This document shows positions 1-9,928 of a stretch of DNA of 64,000 bases, one piece after another; the stretch's first letter is position 1; the number at the start of each line of letters is the position of its first letter. Under the pieces are notes generated by a model. The model was given only the letters and a program-made list of their open reading frames with translations, made no database searches and was not told the DNA's origin. Both the position numbers and the translations under genes were made by a program. The stretch lies in the NCBI RefSeq assembly GCF_055900595.2, contig NZ_CM148325.1; one strand, 5' to 3'.

Positions 1-301
1 TGAATTCTGATTCTTAGTTTCAGCAATGTAACGTCCATCACCAGACATATGATCAGGAAGTCGATAATCTTTTTTGCCGCTAGCACTTGGGATTTTTACC
101 GTATTTTTAGGTAGTCCAGTTAATTCAGAAGAATTTTTCTCACCCGCCTTACCTAAATCTGTACAGGCTTTTCCTCCCTTTAATCCTAAAGGATCGATCC
201 AGCCTAACGGATTCGGCGCATACTGATAAAGATTCAGTCCCCCCGCCAGCCCTATCGGGTCTGGCTGCGTAAACCGCCCGCAGTCCGGATCGTAGTACCT
301 G
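1..301 (-). pseudogene. Orphan rhs C-terminal fragment (5'-truncated, no start codon); runs off the window start
   Basis: Minus-strand translation from ~301 gives [41 protein letters not shown] followed by a divergent tail ([16 protein letters not shown]...). An in-frame stop lies immediately upstream and there is no ATG. Confidence 0.6.
188..301. repeat. Direct repeat copy 1 (~113 bp, ~85% identical to 1074..1185): conserved Rhs core/CT junction
   Basis: Aligned by eye: ggatcgatcc...gattcagtccccccgccagccctatcgggtc...ccggatcgtagtacctg is shared with the main rhs junction. Confidence 0.7.
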
Positions 302-409
302 AGTAAGTATACCCACGCTCAAGATGCATCTCTTAAAAATAAAGAAGCAGCGCAGTGTTTATTACCTTCTGCGATTACACTCGCTGCATGCAACTCTGAT
401 GCTTCACGA

Positions 410-736
410 CTATTTATTTAAACCGGACATATTAATACCTATATACGATAATTCATCTAAATCTTGATGCCTATTTGTAGGTTCTAAATAACGTGCAGGA
501 AATAAATCCCTGGCAGCATGATAATATAAAATAGAGATAATATCCTTTTGTATTTCCTTCAATGCCTCTCTATTTTCACAACCAGTAATTTCATAAACCT
601 CCTGATCGCTACAATTTTCTAATACATAATTTATGCACGATTCATAAATCATCAAACCGTCTTCTGATACATCAATGTGAAATTGATTCACTGTTCCTGA
701 AGGATTTCTATGTTCCAATAAATACATTTCTCTCAC
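410..736 (-). CDS. Putative Rhs immunity protein (RhsI), 108 aa, cognate to the CT toxin of the upstream rhs
   Basis: Starts 3 nt after the rhs stop on the same strand with a GTG start; AT-rich like the rhs tip. This is the canonical position for an immunity gene. Confidence 0.6.
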   Translation of the reverse strand: MREMYLLEHRNPSGTVNQFHIDVSEDGLMIYESCINYVLENCSDQEVYEITGCENREALKEIQKDIISILYYHAARDLFPARYLEPTNRHQDLDELSYIGINMSGLNK

Positions 737-739
737 CTA

Positions 740-3700
740 TTAAAATCTTACATAATCACTAAATATATCTCTAAATTCATCAAGTTCACTTTGAGTTGGT
801 CTTTCCCATCGGTCAGTATTTCTATTCATTCGATGTTGGATATTTTTCCTAGAGATATCCCTCATAGATGTGACAATTTCAGAACCATCTTTTTCAATTA
901 TATGTGCTCTGCCATTTGGTCCCAGTACAACCCACCGCCCATCTGATTGCTTTAATATATCGCTAGAACGCGCATTTTGAAGATCATTAATAACAGCACC
1001 AATAGGTCGACCTTCACGATGCCGTTGTAAAGCATGACTACTTTTCTTCAAAGTAGCACACATCTGTCCCAACGGATCGATCCAACTTAATGGATTCGGT
1101 GCATATTGATAGAGATTCAGTCCCCCCGCCAGCCCTATCGGGTCCGTTACCATGAACCGCCCGACATCCGGATCATAGTACCTGTGCAGATTGTAATGCA
1201 GCCCTGTTTCCCTGTCGAGGTACTGTCCCTGGTAGCGCAGGTTCTGCTCCACCCCGCCGTGGTCCTTCTCCTGTATCGTGTTACCCCAGACCTGATACCC
1301 CGTCTCCCACACGATTTTCCCGTCACTGTCCGTCATCTCTTCCGGCGCACCGTTCACATCCGTGTGAAAATACAGTATCCGGTTCGGTCCCTCTTTGCCC
1401 GCCTTATCCACCCGCGCCAGCGGTTCATAACTCCCCTGGTCACTGTAGATATACAGGCTGCCTGTTCCCTCCGGCCTGCTCTCCTGCGCCAGCCGCATTC
1501 CGTCCCATAAAAATGTCGTCCGGTTATACGGTTTACCGTCAGGGCTGATGTGCTGTTTTTCCGTCCGCCTCCCCAGCGCATCGTACACATACCGGTACGT
1601 TCCCCGCGCTGTCGTCACTTCCACCATCCGGTGTTCCGCATCATAACGGTAACTCTGCGCTCCGCTCCGGCCCTGCTTTTCCACCGTCCGGCCAAATTCG
1701 TCGTAACGGTAGTGCACACCACGGTAAGACATCAGCCGGTTGAACGGCACAACGCTGTTTTCTGCCGTGGCCCTTTCCCCCGCACGCCGCCCCAGCAGGT
1801 TTCCCGCCGCGTCGTACTGCCAGCTCGCCAGATACCCCTCATCCTCCGAGCGGCACGCCGTGATGCGCCCCGTGGGGTCGTAGAAGTAATCCGTTTCCCC
1901 CCGCCGGCTGTGCCGCGTCTTCAGCAGTTCATCCTCGCCGCTGTAGCTGTACTGCCGGTCCGTGAACGTCTCCGGTACCACCCCGCGCATCCCGCTGTAT
2001 GTCTCCCTGCGCTTCAGCCGCCCGGCGGTGTCGTAAAGCTGCCGCGTGCTCAGTCGCCCCTGACTTCTGAGCACCTCCCGGTGCAGGGCGTCACGTGTGA
2101 ACTCGCTGATGACCTCCCGGTCCAGATTTATCTGCTGGAGATGGCCGCTGCCGTAGTACAGATGGCGCTGCGTTCTGCCGTCCGGAAAGGTGGTGGCTGT
2201 CCGGTTGCCCAGTTCATCGTACTGATGGGTCAGGACGCCCTGCGCCGTCTCCTCGGTCAGCATCCGCCCCAGTCTGTCGTAACTGAAGCGGATAACTTCC
2301 GGCGCGTCAGTTTCGTGCCGCTGGCGGCGGATTTCCAGTAGCTGGTCTGCCGCATCATGGACGTATTCCGTATGGCTATCGGCTGTCTCCTTTGCCGTGA
2401 GCCGGCCCGCCGCATCGCGCGCCAGCCGGTGACGGATTTCACCGCCCCGGTCCCCGGTGAACACCACTTCCGTGACCGCGTTCAGCGCGTTGTAACGGTA
2501 CGCCTGGCGGCAGCCGTCCGGATTTATCTGCTCCGCCAGACGGTCCAGCACATCATGGCGGAACCGGTAGCTTTCTCCGTTCTCGTTCGTGAGCGTGACC
2601 AGACGCCCGTAAGCATCGTACCCGAACGCCGTCCTGCGCCCCGTCGCGTCTGTCCGGCTGCGCACCCGGCCCTGCCCGTCCCGCTGCCAGCGCGTTATCC
2701 TCCCCATCGGGCTGGTGTACTTCACCAGCCTGCCCGCCGCGTCCGACTGGTAATTCACCGTGCGGCCGTCCGCCAGTATCACCTCCGTCAGATGACCGCT
2801 GTCGTCATACCCGTAGCGCGTGCTGTGGCTCTGCGCGTCTGTCATTCTGATAAGCCGCGTGCGTTCGTCGTAGAACCAGGCCGTCTGCGAGCCGGAACAG
2901 TCCGTGTGCCGCATGAGCTGCCCGTCTTCGTTCCACTGAAGGTATTTATTCCCCCCACGGGCATCGGTTATCTGCACCACCTGGCCGTGGCGGTCATACT
3001 GATACCGGGTGTTCTGCTGCAGCGGGTCGGTCACCGCAAGAAGATTGCCGCGTTCATCGTACTCACAGCACCAGCTGTTCCCCGCCGCGTCCACCTCCGT
3101 TTCCGGCTGGTGCCACACCGGGTGCCACTGTGTCTGTGCCACCCGCCCCAGCGGGTCGTGCGTCTCCGTGATATGCCCCTGCCGGTCATACACATAGCGC
3201 CATTTGCCGCCCTGCGCATCGCTCATTCCCAGTAACAGCCGTTCTTCGTCGCTCCAGCGGAACGTCGTCACCTGCCCGGCTTCGTCCTGGTACGCCGTCA
3301 CCTGGTTCTGCGCATCCCACTGATGATAACGCGTGCGCCCCAGCCCGTCCGTCACGCACAGCCTGCGTGCCGCCAGGCTCCACGCCAGCCGGTACTGTTC
3401 ACCGCTGTCCGTGTGGTGCCCCGTCACCCGCCACGCTGCGTCATCCGGGCCTTCATACCAGCCCCACTGGTAATAATACCCTTCGCCGCCCGGCTGGCGG
3501 TGCAGGGTCATGCAGTGGTTTTCGTCGTAAGCAAACTCACGCAGCAGGTGCCCCGTGCTGTCGTACACGCCGTTCAGGTCGCCGGCCTCGTCATAGCGGT
3601 AACGACGCAGCAGTAAAGGAGCCGTCTCAGGGAAATGCTGATAAATCTGTGTCACCCGCCGGGGATGCGCCGCCAGTTCATAATGCAGACGAATGCACGG

Positions 3701-5371
3701 ACGCTGCTGTTCACCGCTGATTTGCGTGATGCGCCCCAGCTCGTCGTAGTACAGATTCAGACAGTTGCTGTTGCGGTCGCCCAGCATTTTCAGCCGCTGG
3801 CGCTGCGGGTGATGCGGGTCGGCTTCAAACAGAAAAAACTGCCCGTCATCGCTGCTGATAAGCCAGTGCCCCTGCTCACCCCGCCGTACTGCCAGTCCTT
3901 CGCCGGGGCTGTAAAACCCGCTCCCCGGCAGCACGGCCTCCATATCCAGGCGTCGTCCCATGCCCGACACAAAGGTCATACAGTTTTCGTCAGCAGTACC
4001 CGGCGTGCGCTCGAGGCTGACTTCATACATCACGCTCCAGCCCTGCCCGAACATCCCTTCCGTGCGGTCGTCACGACTGCTGTACACGCGCTGCCAGTCC
4101 AGCGGAAAGTGGCCCGGCAGACTGAAATCGAAGTCATCGTCATCCGCCAGATATTTGGCTCCGGTGGCGGCATTGACCGGATGCGGAAGGGCACTGATGG
4201 CCTTCTGCGTCATCACCCCCATCCCGACACTGGCAGCAAAACAGGCGATTTTAGAAAGCATTTTGCCCGGGCGAAGAAACATCAGCGCCACGGTTGCCAC
4301 CAGGGTTATCTGCGACCTGCCGCTTCTGATATCCCTGACCACCAGTAACGGACCGCCAATGCGGACATCCGGTGACAAAAACGCCCCGTTCCCCGGCTCA
4401 TTCACCACCCTGGCCTCGCAGGTACAGCGTGCCCCGCTGCGTGCCGCCGGCTGGCTGTTGATACGCACATCCCGCGCGCCTTCCGCGATATATTCCGCTG
4501 CGGGCGGTTCATCATCGCCTTTGAACAGATTACTGATGCTGCCAATAACCGCATTCACTCCCTGAAAGGCGGTTTCCAGCATACCGCCCGGACTCAACAG
4601 GTTAAGGGCCGTTCCCAGGGGGTCATCCAGAAAGGCGGCTTTTTTTTGTGCGAGAAACTGCGTCAGTGAGGAGGGATGTTTATGGCAGTCGATTTTATCG
4701 TCAGGGGTCGGGGTGGAGCCCGGGGCCGCACTGGCCACGGTGGGCTGCCATAGTTCCGACACAAAATGTGTCACGCCATCCACCATTTCAGAACGCCCTT
4801 CTTCCGTACTGAGCTGGTCGTGCAGCGCCCGGGACATCAGCACAGGCCCTGTCACCGGGTTAACCGCCAGGGCTATGGCCCCCGCCATTTCCAGATATTC
4901 CCCGGCCACATCCAGAAACGTTCTGGCATCCTCCTGACGCTGCGCTTCTTCCTGTTCCGCCTTCGCCTTCGCCTGCGCCTCCTGCGCCTCAATGTCCTGC
5001 CGTGATGCCGCAGTCGCCGCGGCCCGCGCGGCAGGTTTGCTGTTGATCCATGTGTCGCCAGAGCCGGTGAGGATGTAACCTTCAATCTGAGGCGGGAAAA
5101 GCCAGTTCGCCAGTTGCTCACTTTCCCTACTGATTCGGTCATTCCAGCCCTGATACGACATAAATACCGCTGTTGCTATACCGATCGCTAAAATGGTTGA
5201 GCAGCCCAGCGTTGCCACTTCAACTCCGCCCAGCGCCGCCATGGTTCCGACAACCAGAACATCCACCAGGGCTGTGGCGGCAACCTCTACAACTGCCCCC
5301 AGCACATCTGCTATAAACGACGTATGCAGCAGGGCATCACCCTGCCTTGCTGCCCAGAATGCCTCTTCCAT
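740..5371 (-). CDS. prePAAR/PAAR-Rhs type VI secretion effector, 1543 aa
   Basis: N-terminus carries an AARxxDxxxH prePAAR motif (AARQGDALLH, residues 7-16) and hydrophobic segments flanking a PAAR-like region. Long YD/Rhs repeat core follows. Core ends with [26 protein letters not shown], then a 108-aa C-terminal tip. Confidence 0.9.
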   Translation of the reverse strand: MEEAFWAARQGDALLHTSFIADVLGAVVEVAATALVDVLVVGTMAALGGVEVATLGCSTILAIGIATAVFMSYQGWNDRISRESEQLANWLFPPQIEGYILTGSGDTWINSKPAARAAATAASRQDIEAQEAQAKAKAEQEEAQRQEDARTFLDVAGEYLEMAGAIALAVNPVTGPVLMSRALHDQLSTEEGRSEMVDGVTHFVSELWQPTVASAAPGSTPTPDDKIDCHKHPSSLTQFLAQKKAAFLDDPLGTALNLLSPGGMLETAFQGVNAVIGSISNLFKGDDEPPAAEYIAEGARDVRINSQPAARSGARCTCEARVVNEPGNGAFLSPDVRIGGPLLVVRDIRSGRSQITLVATVALMFLRPGKMLSKIACFAASVGMGVMTQKAISALPHPVNAATGAKYLADDDDFDFSLPGHFPLDWQRVYSSRDDRTEGMFGQGWSVMYEVSLERTPGTADENCMTFVSGMGRRLDMEAVLPGSGFYSPGEGLAVRRGEQGHWLISSDDGQFFLFEADPHHPQRQRLKMLGDRNSNCLNLYYDELGRITQISGEQQRPCIRLHYELAAHPRRVTQIYQHFPETAPLLLRRYRYDEAGDLNGVYDSTGHLLREFAYDENHCMTLHRQPGGEGYYYQWGWYEGPDDAAWRVTGHHTDSGEQYRLAWSLAARRLCVTDGLGRTRYHQWDAQNQVTAYQDEAGQVTTFRWSDEERLLLGMSDAQGGKWRYVYDRQGHITETHDPLGRVAQTQWHPVWHQPETEVDAAGNSWCCEYDERGNLLAVTDPLQQNTRYQYDRHGQVVQITDARGGNKYLQWNEDGQLMRHTDCSGSQTAWFYDERTRLIRMTDAQSHSTRYGYDDSGHLTEVILADGRTVNYQSDAAGRLVKYTSPMGRITRWQRDGQGRVRSRTDATGRRTAFGYDAYGRLVTLTNENGESYRFRHDVLDRLAEQINPDGCRQAYRYNALNAVTEVVFTGDRGGEIRHRLARDAAGRLTAKETADSHTEYVHDAADQLLEIRRQRHETDAPEVIRFSYDRLGRMLTEETAQGVLTHQYDELGNRTATTFPDGRTQRHLYYGSGHLQQINLDREVISEFTRDALHREVLRSQGRLSTRQLYDTAGRLKRRETYSGMRGVVPETFTDRQYSYSGEDELLKTRHSRRGETDYFYDPTGRITACRSEDEGYLASWQYDAAGNLLGRRAGERATAENSVVPFNRLMSYRGVHYRYDEFGRTVEKQGRSGAQSYRYDAEHRMVEVTTARGTYRYVYDALGRRTEKQHISPDGKPYNRTTFLWDGMRLAQESRPEGTGSLYIYSDQGSYEPLARVDKAGKEGPNRILYFHTDVNGAPEEMTDSDGKIVWETGYQVWGNTIQEKDHGGVEQNLRYQGQYLDRETGLHYNLHRYYDPDVGRFMVTDPIGLAGGLNLYQYAPNPLSWIDPLGQMCATLKKSSHALQRHREGRPIGAVINDLQNARSSDILKQSDGRWVVLGPNGRAHIIEKDGSEIVTSMRDISRKNIQHRMNRNTDRWERPTQSELDEFRDIFSDYVRF
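743..1066 (-). other. Rhs C-terminal toxin domain (108 aa after the DPLG junction), activity unknown
   Basis: Sequence after IDPLG: QMCATLKKSSHALQRHREGRPIGAVINDLQ...DEFRDIFSDYVRF. Composition drops sharply to AT-rich relative to the GC-rich core. Confidence 0.6.
1074..1185. repeat. Direct repeat copy 2 (Rhs core/CT junction within the full-length rhs)
   Basis: ~85% identical to 188..301. Confidence 0.7.
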
Positions 5372-5389
5372 GTCCCGTTCCCTGTGTGA

Positions 5390-5842
5390 TTAATTCGTCC
5401 CGGCTTCCTGCCGTATCCTGAAGCGCAGATTCTTTTTAATTTCAGCCCAGCGCGTCATATCTGCCGGGGTCAGCGGTGTGGTTCTGGCGTAGGTGAAGGC
5501 CATCATGACCCGCTCACCCGGCAACACAAATGCCACCTGACACTGGTACACCTGCTCGTTACCCCGGAGAAACTGACTCTGTATTTCCAGCCCTTCTTCA
5601 CCGTCATTAATCCCTACCCGTGTTACCTGAACGGGCGTGTAGTGAAGATCCTTTACCTGTTTCTCCAGTTTTTTCATTTGCTGTTCAATCTGGGAGGCTA
5701 ATTCGTCTCCTTCCTGCATCTGGCCCCGGCTGATAATGAGTGCAGCGTCGGGATCGCTGAGACGCAGCATATTAATCGTACTGTCCTGAATAATATTCCC
5801 GGGGAAAGTTACAACAGTTTCATTGAGATAATACTCCGTCAT
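5390..5842 (-). CDS. DUF1795/EagR-family chaperone for the prePAAR-Rhs effector, 150 aa
   Basis: Sits between vgrG and rhs on the same strand, 18 bp upstream of the rhs start; size and N-terminal pattern (MTEYYLNETVVTFPG) fit the Eag family. Confidence 0.65.
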   Translation of the reverse strand: MTEYYLNETVVTFPGNIIQDSTINMLRLSDPDAALIISRGQMQEGDELASQIEQQMKKLEKQVKDLHYTPVQVTRVGINDGEEGLEIQSQFLRGNEQVYQCQVAFVLPGERVMMAFTYARTTPLTPADMTRWAEIKKNLRFRIRQEAGTN

Positions 5843-5892
5843 AATGGTATGAGTCCTTGTTAATTAATAAATTATTTAATGATGGTTTTTAT

Positions 5893-7887
5893 TTATTTTT
5901 TAGTCATGAAGGTGACGTCTATTGCCAACTGAAGGGCTGTTTTCTCCGATGTTCCAGGCGGAGGTATATCTGCCGCTCTGTCATTCATATTTAAATCAAG
6001 CTGCCCTGATTGTGTATTTATCTTTCCATTTTCCGTTGCGGTAATATTAAAATTCTTACAGGTTATATTAAATATTCCGTCACTGGTCATTTGCAGGATA
6101 GTTTCTCCGCAGCTAAGAATAATGGAATCTCCCGCAGCAAGGCGTAAATTCTGTACGGCCTGAATCGTTTTATTTCGTCCGGCAAGGGAGGTATCATCCG
6201 TCTGGACTGTTAGAGAACGTTTCTCACCAATAATCGCAGTTTCTGTTTTATCAATGACTTTAAGGCGATTATTGCCCACCCAGTGGCTTTCATTATTATT
6301 TACTTCAATGCGTTGATCTTTCTCGGCATGCAACCAGATTTCTTCTCCGCCAGTTTTATCCTCAAAACGCAAGGCGTTAGCATTGGTCGGGCCGCCGCCG
6401 ATAGTGTGGCTGTAAAACCCGCTTTGCGTCGCTGCGCCCGGTAGTCCCCACGGTGGCATGGTGTCCTGATTGTAGGTACGCCCAACGATTATCGGTAAAT
6501 CCGGATCACCGTTTTTGAAATCCACCAGTACTTCCTGACCAATGCGCGGGATCTGAATGCCACCGAATCCTTTACCCGCCCACGGATAACTGACACGGAC
6601 CCAGCAGGAACTGTTTTCATCATTCTTACCGTAACGATCCCAGCCAAACTGAACTTTCACCCGGCCATATTTATCTGTCCAGATTTCCTGTCCCGTCGGG
6701 CCGGTCACGATGGCGCTCTGCGGGCCTTTAGTATGGGGTTTGCTCAGGGTTCGCTGCGGGCGGTAAACTTCGCTGGTGGGATGCAGTTCAAAGCTGGTTG
6801 AGTAAGAGAAATGCTGCTCCTGGCCGCTGTGTTGCGCATTGTCCTGTATAAATAGCGTGGTCTGAACCAGCAGATATTCCCGGTTCACTTCGGCTGTCGG
6901 ATAGTTTTCCAGGGTGAAGGTAAAACCTGTCATCAGGGTACGAATATTGCCGCTGCCCTGTACCCGACTACCGGGGCTACACTGTTCTTCCATGCGGATG
7001 CGTGTCAGCATTTCACCTTCACTCTTTGTGAAGTAGTCTCCCGGCCATTCGTAGTGCTCATATTCAGCAAGGCCAGTTTCACGCGGATTAGCCACGGTGC
7101 TCTTGAGCAGTGAACGCGGCTTCATAAAGTCGAAATCATTTAGTACCCACTGTCCGCTGCGCAGGCTTTCATTTGCTGTGATGGTATGGATAAATTCCTT
7201 GTCCAGTTTCAGCCCTTTCTGGTAATAACACACCAGTGGCGAATCTGCGCACGCCTTGTGGACATTAATGGCATCAGCCAGCACTAACGTGTGACTGTTC
7301 TCGTTGTGCTCAAACCACCAGTAGATACCCCACTCCTGCATCAGGCGCTGAATAAAATCGAAATCTGTTTCACCGTACTGCACCTGCCAGGCGCGAGTCG
7401 GATAATTTTCCACCAGTCGTTTTTCCACTGGCCAGGGGTACTCATCCAGTACCTCATCCAGGATCTCCACCACGTTTTTATTTTGAAACGCTTTGTAGTC
7501 ACTAGTGTGGGTCAGTATTTTTAACCACGGTTCAATCCGCAGTTCATACACCACCGAACGTCCTTGATGACCAGCCACGCGTGCCGCCGTCACCAGCCCG
7601 CTGATATAACGTTTTCCGCCGCCATCCAATTCGATATTGACGCACAGATCTTTGCCCACCATCGGTTTGAGCTGCAGGTTGGCTGCGGGGGAAACATAGC
7701 CCAGGTTCAGGATGTCAGGAGTTTTTAATTTAATAGAATAAGTAAATAGTTCCCCTACTGTTTCTGTCCCCCCTAAGCTTGCAAACAGTAACATTCCATC
7801 AGGAACTGCGCTGCCGCTCAAAGTCACGTTATGTGTACCCGATCCAGTTAGTGCGCCGGATGGATAATCTGTAGCTGCAAAACTCAT
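5893..7887 (-). CDS. vgrG: VgrG type VI secretion spike protein, 664 aa
   Basis: gp27/gp5-like hallmark segments ([62 protein letters not shown]) with a C-terminal beta-helix-like repeat region; 3' end is AT-rich. Confidence 0.9.
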
Positions 7888-8242
7888 AATTAATCCTTTT
7901 AACTAGAAATGGCTAAGTGCTAATAAGAAATCTTACAGAGAATAAAATATGCAATATATTCGTAGCTGGCATAAAACATCTCAATACTTATGCGTGCTAC
8001 TGAAGATACTATCAACCATATATGCCTTGAAGAATGCACCATCATGTTAACCTGGTGGAAACATTCACCTAAAGTACATTAATAAAACCAATAAAATTAT
8101 TTAATCTGTTATTTGATATGATTATCATCAAATCTTAAAATACGTTCCCCGGTTCTAATTATGCTAAAACCATAATATTCTTTTGTACTTCCGGAAGAGA
8201 GCATATATTTCCCGATATACATAACATCTGAAGATAGCTCAC

Positions 8243-8464
8243 TTATGTCAATACATTGGGATCGAACTGACCTGTCACTCTTTTCAATTTTATTGCATTG
8301 CCATATTTACCTTCATATAAAATATAATTTGAAATAATATTCCCATCGTCTGGTTTTGAACAAACCCGCCCGTCTTGTAAATATACATTACCGGGTAACA
8401 ATGGGCGAACATAATCACCAACAGTGCATCCCGATAAAAAGAATAACAAAAAGAATCTCTTCAT
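8243..8464 (-). CDS. Small predicted lipoprotein, 73 aa; candidate periplasmic immunity protein
   Basis: Signal peptide with lipobox (MKRFFLLFFLSGC). Start overlaps the stop of the upstream HExxH gene by 4 bp (ATGA), suggesting translational coupling. AT-rich. Confidence 0.55.
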   Translation of the reverse strand: MKRFFLLFFLSGCTVGDYVRPLLPGNVYLQDGRVCSKPDDGNIISNYILYEGKYGNAIKLKRVTGQFDPNVLT

Positions 8465-9030
8465 ATGACACCAGCAGGAAATAAATTAAGCACCTTCTTG
8501 TATTTTTCCGATAGAGTATTCACTGATTCTGTTGTATCACCTACATAGTTAACATTTGCCAAATCAGAGACCAATCCATAGTTAATCAATAGCCAATAAT
8601 CAGCAACTATAGATGCTTGTTGTTCCATAGAATAAGAAGAAATTGACTGTAAATTAAGATCGTAATGATAATTTGCCGCCCAGGAAAATAAACCACGCAA
8701 CTTAACTGCATACCCTTTCTGATATTGCCAAACATGCATCGTTTCATGAATAAACAAGTGAGAAGCACCTGCAACTGTTTCACGATCACCAGGCATTGCT
8801 TGCGATGAAAAATCTGAACTATAAACAGCATCAGGATAATACATTTCCCCGTTTGGGGTCATCGCTGTTCTTTCCCCTTGACCAGGCAAATATTTTTCAT
8901 TGTGGATCCATACCTTGCTATAATCAATTGTATTCTCAAAAATCGATCTGGCCAATGTTAATTCACCAGATGTCATTCTCCTTAATGATATATCCTTTCC
9001 CCTGGAAATAATATCTTTCAGATAAAACAC
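8461..9030 (-). CDS. Putative zincin-like metallopeptidase, 189 aa; candidate secreted effector
   Basis: HExxH motif extended to HETMHVWQYQ at residues 95-104, an HExxHxxQ pattern I recall as typical of DUF4157-type toxin domains. No signal peptide. AT-rich. Confidence 0.5.
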   Translation of the reverse strand: MFYLKDIISRGKDISLRRMTSGELTLARSIFENTIDYSKVWIHNEKYLPGQGERTAMTPNGEMYYPDAVYSSDFSSQAMPGDRETVAGASHLFIHETMHVWQYQKGYAVKLRGLFSWAANYHYDLNLQSISSYSMEQQASIVADYWLLINYGLVSDLANVNYVGDTTESVNTLSEKYKKVLNLFPAGVI

Positions 9031-9928
9031 AAACGCTCTTTGATGTTCAACATTTCCACTTTATACAGTATTGATGACATCATCTTCATAGAAAATGAAA
9101 TCAAAGTAAGTTATCAACGTTTCCCGTTATGATTTTTTAACCTTAATTCTCAGCATTTTTATTAATCTATCTTCAATATCAATAACCGATGCAAATGATT
9201 ACGCAGTTATCATAACTCCCATCAATTGATTAATATCTGTAAACGCTACCGCCCCACCCTGATATTTTAATCTGCACATAGCAATCTTAACGTTATGCCC
9301 CATACATTAGTAATGTAAATTAAGAATTCGGAATATATCAAATTCACTTCATAAATTAATATCGAGAATGATATACACATTAATTATATTGAAGTCATGT
9401 TTTAAGCGTTGTAATGACCATGGAACAGGACTAATTCCAGAAACTCCTGTCAGGCAATAGCGCGTTTATCACCCTACATGCCTTTTACATTTTTTAGCCT
9501 TTTCTGTAACGTCGGCAACTGGCTCATTTAATCAGCAATTGTATCGGCATTTGGCGTATTACCCCTGAAACCTGCCATGTGCTAGCCCCTCACTATTCAA
9601 TGATCCAACCACGCCAGTGTCCACTGCAACCACTGGCGTTCAGAGCGACGAACGAGTGGCGCAAGAGTAGGACTGCCGTCGGGTATCATCAAACCAATAG
9701 TGGTTGTTTCCGTCATAATTTCATCAGGTTGCTATTTTGTTGCCGGCCGCCTTTATCCCCGCATATTTATAGCGGGATTATTTTGCATCGTTACACGATA
9801 AAAGGTAGGATTCTGCGCCGACAGTTATACCCATAAAGAATAATGGTGAATCTTGTCATCGCCAGGATGAATAAACATTGTTCATGGCAACTTATATGAC
9901 TTTTTCATTAAAGCAATCAGGGAGAGCA

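Follow-up and report, generated by a model that had tools for sequence, protein, structure and literature searches.

A 64,000-nt stretch of contig NZ_CM148325.1 from NCBI RefSeq assembly GCF_055900595.2 (hereafter the window, to which all coordinates refer) carries an auxiliary, or orphan, type VI secretion system (T6SS) effector island of a previously reported type, which occupies the ansP-yddH hotspot of Escherichia coli. The T6SS matching this island has probably been lost from the clone to which the window belongs, leaving what is most likely a stranded island in early decay. Its genes, tightly packed and all on the minus strand, run in the order metallopeptidase open reading frame (ORF), lipoprotein gene, vgrG, eag, rhs and immunity gene. 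An earlier note on this DNA had proposed a complete module of VgrG spike, DUF1795 chaperone, Rhs protein, toxin tip and immunity protein, and all of these ORFs were recovered on the minus strand: a complete VgrG of 664 residues (5893-7887), an Eag chaperone of 150 residues (5390-5842), a PAAR-Rhs effector of 1543 residues (740-5371) with a 107-residue C-terminal tip (residues 1437-1543; 743-1063), and the cognate immunity protein of that tip (410-736; annotated by RefSeq as 410-727, 105 residues). The description of the island as intact holds for vgrG, eag, rhs and the Rhs immunity gene, but fails for the lipoprotein immunity gene (8103-8464), the frameshift in which means that the island is not wholly intact. 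This pseudogene and the second effector that precedes it occupy 8103-9030, a segment that the note had included in its range of 410-9030 and left undescribed. Of 5426 complete E. coli genomes, roughly 190-230 have the same island at ansP, 96-97% identical as far as the boundary of the toxin.

The spike points to the type of secretion machine that would serve the island. VgrG scores 557 bits against TIGR03361 (cut-off 186) and possesses the Phage_GPD hub, OB and Gp5_trimer_C domains of Pfam that mark VgrG/TssI proteins. By sequence identity it is placed in the i3 lineage, which resembles the T6SS of Salmonella pathogenicity island 6 (SPI-6): it shares 73% identity with the VgrG encoded in the main cluster of the SPI-6-like T6SS at aspV in strain VE-T9, 32% with that of the Sakai T6SS-2, and 24% with those of both the Sci-1 and aai systems of enteroaggregative E. 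coli (EAEC). Its best PDB matches (9mlp, 7q5p and 4mtk) agree with this placement. As had been noted previously, the window itself encodes no T6SS core genes, and none were found across the corresponding 64 kb in a near-identical genome. Candidate machines elsewhere were surveyed through tssC in eight genomes of the window's clone, which served as proxies for the source genome. A single-copy island marker (8100-9800) was combined with fragments of tssC from each T6SS type, and the matching places per chromosome were counted by megablast, which covered chromosomes and needs roughly at least 85% DNA identity. Since tssC proteins of different T6SS types share only ~43% amino-acid identity, detection across types at the DNA level is impossible and each type was tested separately. 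Neither cognate VE-T9-type tssC nor Sakai-type tssC was found in any of the proxies (0/8 in each case), such that by tssC they gave no sign of a core cluster belonging to the same type as the spike, and on the chromosomes of the two genomes with a complete island none of the four E. coli tssC types tested was found. The cargo had been said to depend on a T6SS elsewhere in the genome; its auxiliary nature is confirmed and the dependence is right in principle, but the matching T6SS is probably absent from the clone. Furthermore, the earlier note had offered the lack of any core cluster in the genome as an outcome that would overturn its account, and the tssC survey of clone proxies comes close to that outcome. 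With the matching machine probably gone from the clone, the island is most likely stranded.

A second line of evidence comes from the upstream end of the island. The ORF at 8461-9030 (189 residues; the RefSeq product is of 176 residues, starting near 8991) is homologous to the metallopeptidase domain of Pseudomonas aeruginosa VgrG2b, and is best classified as a free-standing T6SS effector that resembles zinc metallopeptidases and belongs to the VgrG2b C-terminal domain family, which was described together with PA0261-type immunity by Wood et al. 2019 (PMC6899460). It retains the HExxH zinc site and the family fold, and is followed by an ORF for an envelope-targeted immunity protein, the start of which overlaps the metallopeptidase stop codon (ATGA) and which carries the lipobox MKRFFLLFFLSGC. 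A 1-bp deletion at ~8256/8257 truncates this lipoprotein at 73 of its 118 residues. The gene is annotated as frameshifted in all eight clone genomes, is intact in strains E371 and D10, and appears intact also in R32_14_1F, the nearest outgroup, which possesses cognate tssC as well. A 42%-identical homologue of the metallopeptidase and a gene for a "T6SS immunity periplasmic lipoprotein" were also observed just upstream of vgrG in the Sci-1 cluster of EAEC 042 (L010, 26994-28096), such that this three-gene arrangement is common to that cluster and the island although their VgrGs are only 24% identical.

A larger lesion was observed in the clone-mate E400634, where a single internal deletion (L012, 5745-9928; window equivalent ~2140-6960) leaves the 5' half of vgrG fused to rhs, removing eag and the region of rhs encoding the prePAAR motif, transmembrane domain (TMD) and PAAR domain, while the tip and its immunity gene are kept. 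Given the frameshifted lipoprotein gene and the deletion in this sister strain, decay appears to have begun, and its order is a sensible one, with the immunity of a periplasmic effector lost first and that of a cytoplasmic toxin kept. The former may have become dispensable because sister cells no longer fire. The Rhs toxin and immunity pair, in turn, has plausibly been kept because the immunity protein shields the cell from the cytoplasmic toxin that it makes itself, or from related strains that attack it; as the toxin would act in the cytoplasm, its immunity should stay useful for as long as rhs is expressed.

Several considerations weigh against a stranded and decaying island. The absence of a matching T6SS is drawn from clone-mates, not from the source genome, and a divergent or plasmid-borne T6SS would escape a chromosome-only megablast search at ~85% identity. 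The 4.6-kb rhs gene, vgrG and eag are all still open, which argues for recent loss or continuing selection instead of long decay. Also, Sci-1 and/or aai-type tssC was identified in six of the eight clone-mates, and such a non-cognate machine might make use of the spike, an idea that we entertain with some doubt. These same observations can be marshalled for a fully functional island, in which a compatible T6SS elsewhere in the source genome fires the VgrG-Eag-Rhs complex at competitors: none of the three delivery genes is broken, nor is either gene of the toxin/immunity pair, Sci-1 and/or aai systems exist in the clone, and cognate VE-T9-type tssC is present in up to ~113 of the 200-230 island-bearing E. 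coli genomes (with T6SS-2 in at most 12). Set beside the cognate tssC counts in the clone itself, we regard full function as unlikely.

It has also to be considered whether the locus is kept mainly as a reservoir of immunity and of material for recombination, with rhsI, an orphan tip and a SUKH-4 immunity gene protecting against other E. coli Rhs toxins and the delivery genes carried along as passengers. Besides an orphan tip, the island does hold an additional immunity gene; the orphan rhs module (1-322, minus strand) joins a piece of core (181-306) to a small toxin ORF of another kind, and both the orphan tip and the island extend beyond the left end of the window. E400634, moreover, retains tip and immunity although its deletion took the 3' half of vgrG along with eag and the 5' end of rhs, and the review PMC6730261 discusses orphan immunity genes that E. 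coli retains. Such a role would nonetheless leave the open 4.6-kb rhs, vgrG and eag of the window unexplained, and the rarity of the tip, matched in full in 2 of 5426 E. coli genomes, means that attack by the island's own toxin should be uncommon; we consider this explanation very improbable. A cargo island that has lost its machine and begun to decay continues to be the reading that we favour.

Turning to the delivery genes, the Eag protein matches the Pfam family DcrB (PF08786; E = 7e-19), the family once called DUF1795, and its nearest solved relatives are SciW (E = 1.3e-3) and EagT6. The eag gene lies 18 bp upstream of rhs, the adjacent position of a cognate chaperone. At residues 7-16 of Rhs (5324-5353) the sequence AARQGDALLH, inside approximately the first 15 residues, is an exact match to the prePAAR motif AARxxDxxxH defined by Ahmad et al. 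2020 (PMC7773334), bearing out the earlier claim of a perfect motif. Effectors of class I in that scheme possess one TMD region, and those of class II two (PMC7773334). With hydropathy as the sole criterion for transmembrane segments (a 19-residue Kyte-Doolittle mean of at least 1.6), residues 13-73 form the only qualifying stretch, corresponding to an N-terminal transmembrane region at residues ~17-73 (5153-5323) that is the expected Eag-binding site. Hydrophobic segments had been reported to flank the PAAR region; the one preceding it is upheld as a TMD region, whereas segments inside or after the PAAR domain reach at most 1.35-1.4. A class II architecture was rejected on the basis of hydropathy and of homology to the class I effector RhsA.

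The remainder of Rhs has the layout expected of the class, first PAAR and then an Rhs cage whose C-terminal core is an autoprotease. The PAAR domain (PF05488; 4403-5083) is split into two pieces, with residues 97-119 matching model positions 8-30 and residues 293-323 matching positions 39-69, separated by an insert of ~170 residues; the two matches have E values of 3e-5 and a weak 2.6. DUF6531 follows at residues 397-475, then many RHS/YD repeats, and finally the Rhs-associated core at residues 1359-1436 (TIGR03696, 100 bits; cut-off 32.5). Rhs also contains an N-terminal cleavage motif (HPVNAATGAK, residues 397-406) together with YLDRETG and RYYDP, the motifs of the aspartyl protease. Its core closes with DPLGQ (residues 1432-1436; 1064-1078, minus strand; final codon CAG), not with the usual DPxGL. 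The same Q was observed in two further E. coli alleles of the tip (P0001 and P0002), with L in homologues from Escherichia sp. and Salmonella. With its single predicted TMD region, Rhs cage and adjacent Eag, the protein is assigned by sequence to class I of the prePAAR effectors described by Ahmad et al. 2020.

These features suggest how the island would work if provided with a matching T6SS, where the logic of prePAAR and Eag is taken from PMC7773334 and that of the Rhs cage and its cleavage from PMC8765631. Eag would shield the single N-terminal transmembrane region of Rhs, and the prePAAR and PAAR elements would together cap the trimeric VgrG. The Rhs cage would cut itself at HP|V and after DPLG(Q), enclosing the 107-residue toxin, which would be freed in the cytoplasm of the prey and neutralised in the producer by the small protein encoded downstream. 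A second cargo would be the VgrG2b-like periplasmic metallopeptidase, encoded upstream together with its outer-membrane lipoprotein immunity. According to the review PMC6730261, Ma et al. 2017 (Environ Microbiol 19:345) showed that delivery of PAAR-Rhs-CT toxins in E. coli requires vgrGO1 and eagR. In the present clone, the SPI-6-like T6SS at aspV that matches the spike would have been deleted, and the island would be a stranded remnant starting to decay.

The 107-residue tip is the sole uncharacterised part of the module. GC content falls from 61% in the Rhs core to 37% over the last 321 bp of rhs and 31% in the immunity ORF (410-736), the drop from core to tip being the classic contrast of Rhs proteins, and homology to the roughly 190 other island-bearing E. 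coli genomes breaks off precisely at nt 1063, in the first codon past DPLGQ. In full, tip and immunity are found in the same two complete E. coli genomes mentioned above. Searches of Pfam, NCBIfam, PADLOC and the PDB (by phmmer and by profile) returned no match to the tip. Foldseek comparison with the PDB gave only propeller-blade matches, judged to be noise, which arise because the tip motif GRWVV-G-NGR-H-I-E-DG resembles an NHL blade. A profile search with the tip recovered 482 representative clusters, in every case with the domain at the C-terminus, and among 20 full-length members sampled it was preceded by PT-VENN, Rhs, PT-HINT or eCIS-core domains; its carriers thus include CdiA, Rhs, PT-HINT and extracellular contractile injection system (eCIS) proteins. 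This invariably C-terminal position behind polymorphic-toxin carriers identifies the tip as a genuine, unnamed polymorphic-toxin domain, belonging to a widespread family that lacks a Pfam model. Eight residues are invariant across the aligned family (H10, R14, D27, Q39, G42, R43, G48 and R52 in tip numbering). Tentatively, the tip is probably a nuclease-type enzyme, possibly an RNase of the BECR fold, the group that takes in colicins D and E5, CdiA-CT and RelE-like toxins; that it instead founds a polymorphic-toxin family of its own, with a separate fold and activity, is conceivable but strikes us as rather doubtful.

The placement of an immunity gene after the tip, as previously proposed, is supported by comparison across genera. 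In Pectobacterium (L013) and Salmonella (L014), the ORF immediately behind the tip homologue shares 40-45% identity with ORF 410-736, and this recurrence of an immunity-like ORF behind the toxin argues for 410-736 as the cognate immunity gene. The ORF itself matched no named family in NCBIfam or PADLOC.

At the level of the hotspot, E. coli K-12 does carry only a degenerate rhsE at this junction, as the earlier note had stated; the pseudogene (b1456) lies between ansP and yddH. The contrast drawn there between an intact and a degenerate version of one locus is not supported, since rhsE shares just 93 bp at 72% identity with the island rhs by blastn, on which grounds rhsE was also rejected as a decayed copy of it. 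Furthermore, the island Rhs scores 325 bits on the classical E. coli RHS core model of RhsA-E type (NF041261), below the cut-off of 2000. Given this negligible DNA similarity and the failed cut-off, the two genes are alternative occupants of one hotspot and belong to different rhs lineages. Beside ansP, the glutathione S-transferase gene yncG was found to be cut to a 120-bp remnant (9591-9710, minus strand). K-12 keeps yncG, yncH, ydcD, ydcC and pptA, which in the island version of the hotspot are unannotated or reduced to remnants.

Taken together, these findings present the locus as a probable example of a cargo island outliving its own secretion machine, and caution against inferring from an intact vgrG-rhs island that a strain has an active T6SS. 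Little is added to T6SS biology at large, as the module type, the chaperone logic and the metallopeptidase family have all been published (Ma 2017; Ahmad 2020; PMC6899460), and novelty is confined to the uncharacterised toxin tip.

Among known systems, the closest solved structure to Rhs is RhsA of Pseudomonas protegens (7q97; 1056 bits over residues 289-1441). Both proteins combine a prePAAR motif, one predicted TMD region, a linker-split PAAR domain, an Rhs cocoon and a C-terminal aspartyl protease, the HP|V cleavage site of RhsA aligns with HPVNAATGAK, and the gene order vgrG-eag-rhs-immunity is common to the island and to RhsA-EagR1-VgrG1. Unlike RhsA, the island protein has two extra insertions (~75 residues in total) in its N-terminal linker region, an unrelated toxin, and a core ending in DPLGQ in place of DPxGL. 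The i3-type, SPI-6-like cluster at aspV (VE-T9; L008/L011) has, besides its similar VgrG, the same vgrG-eag(SciW)-rhs order; in contrast, its Eag gives no BLASTP match to that of the island, its Rhs is only 34% identical, and the island module lies away from core genes. Set against the VgrG2b family, the metallopeptidase of the island is encoded apart from VgrG, and its immunity gene carries a frameshift. Finally, the vgrGO1-eagR-PAAR-Rhs-CT islands of E. coli, as far as they are outlined in PMC6730261, correspond to the present island in species, gene order, domains, variable C-terminal toxin and downstream immunity gene.

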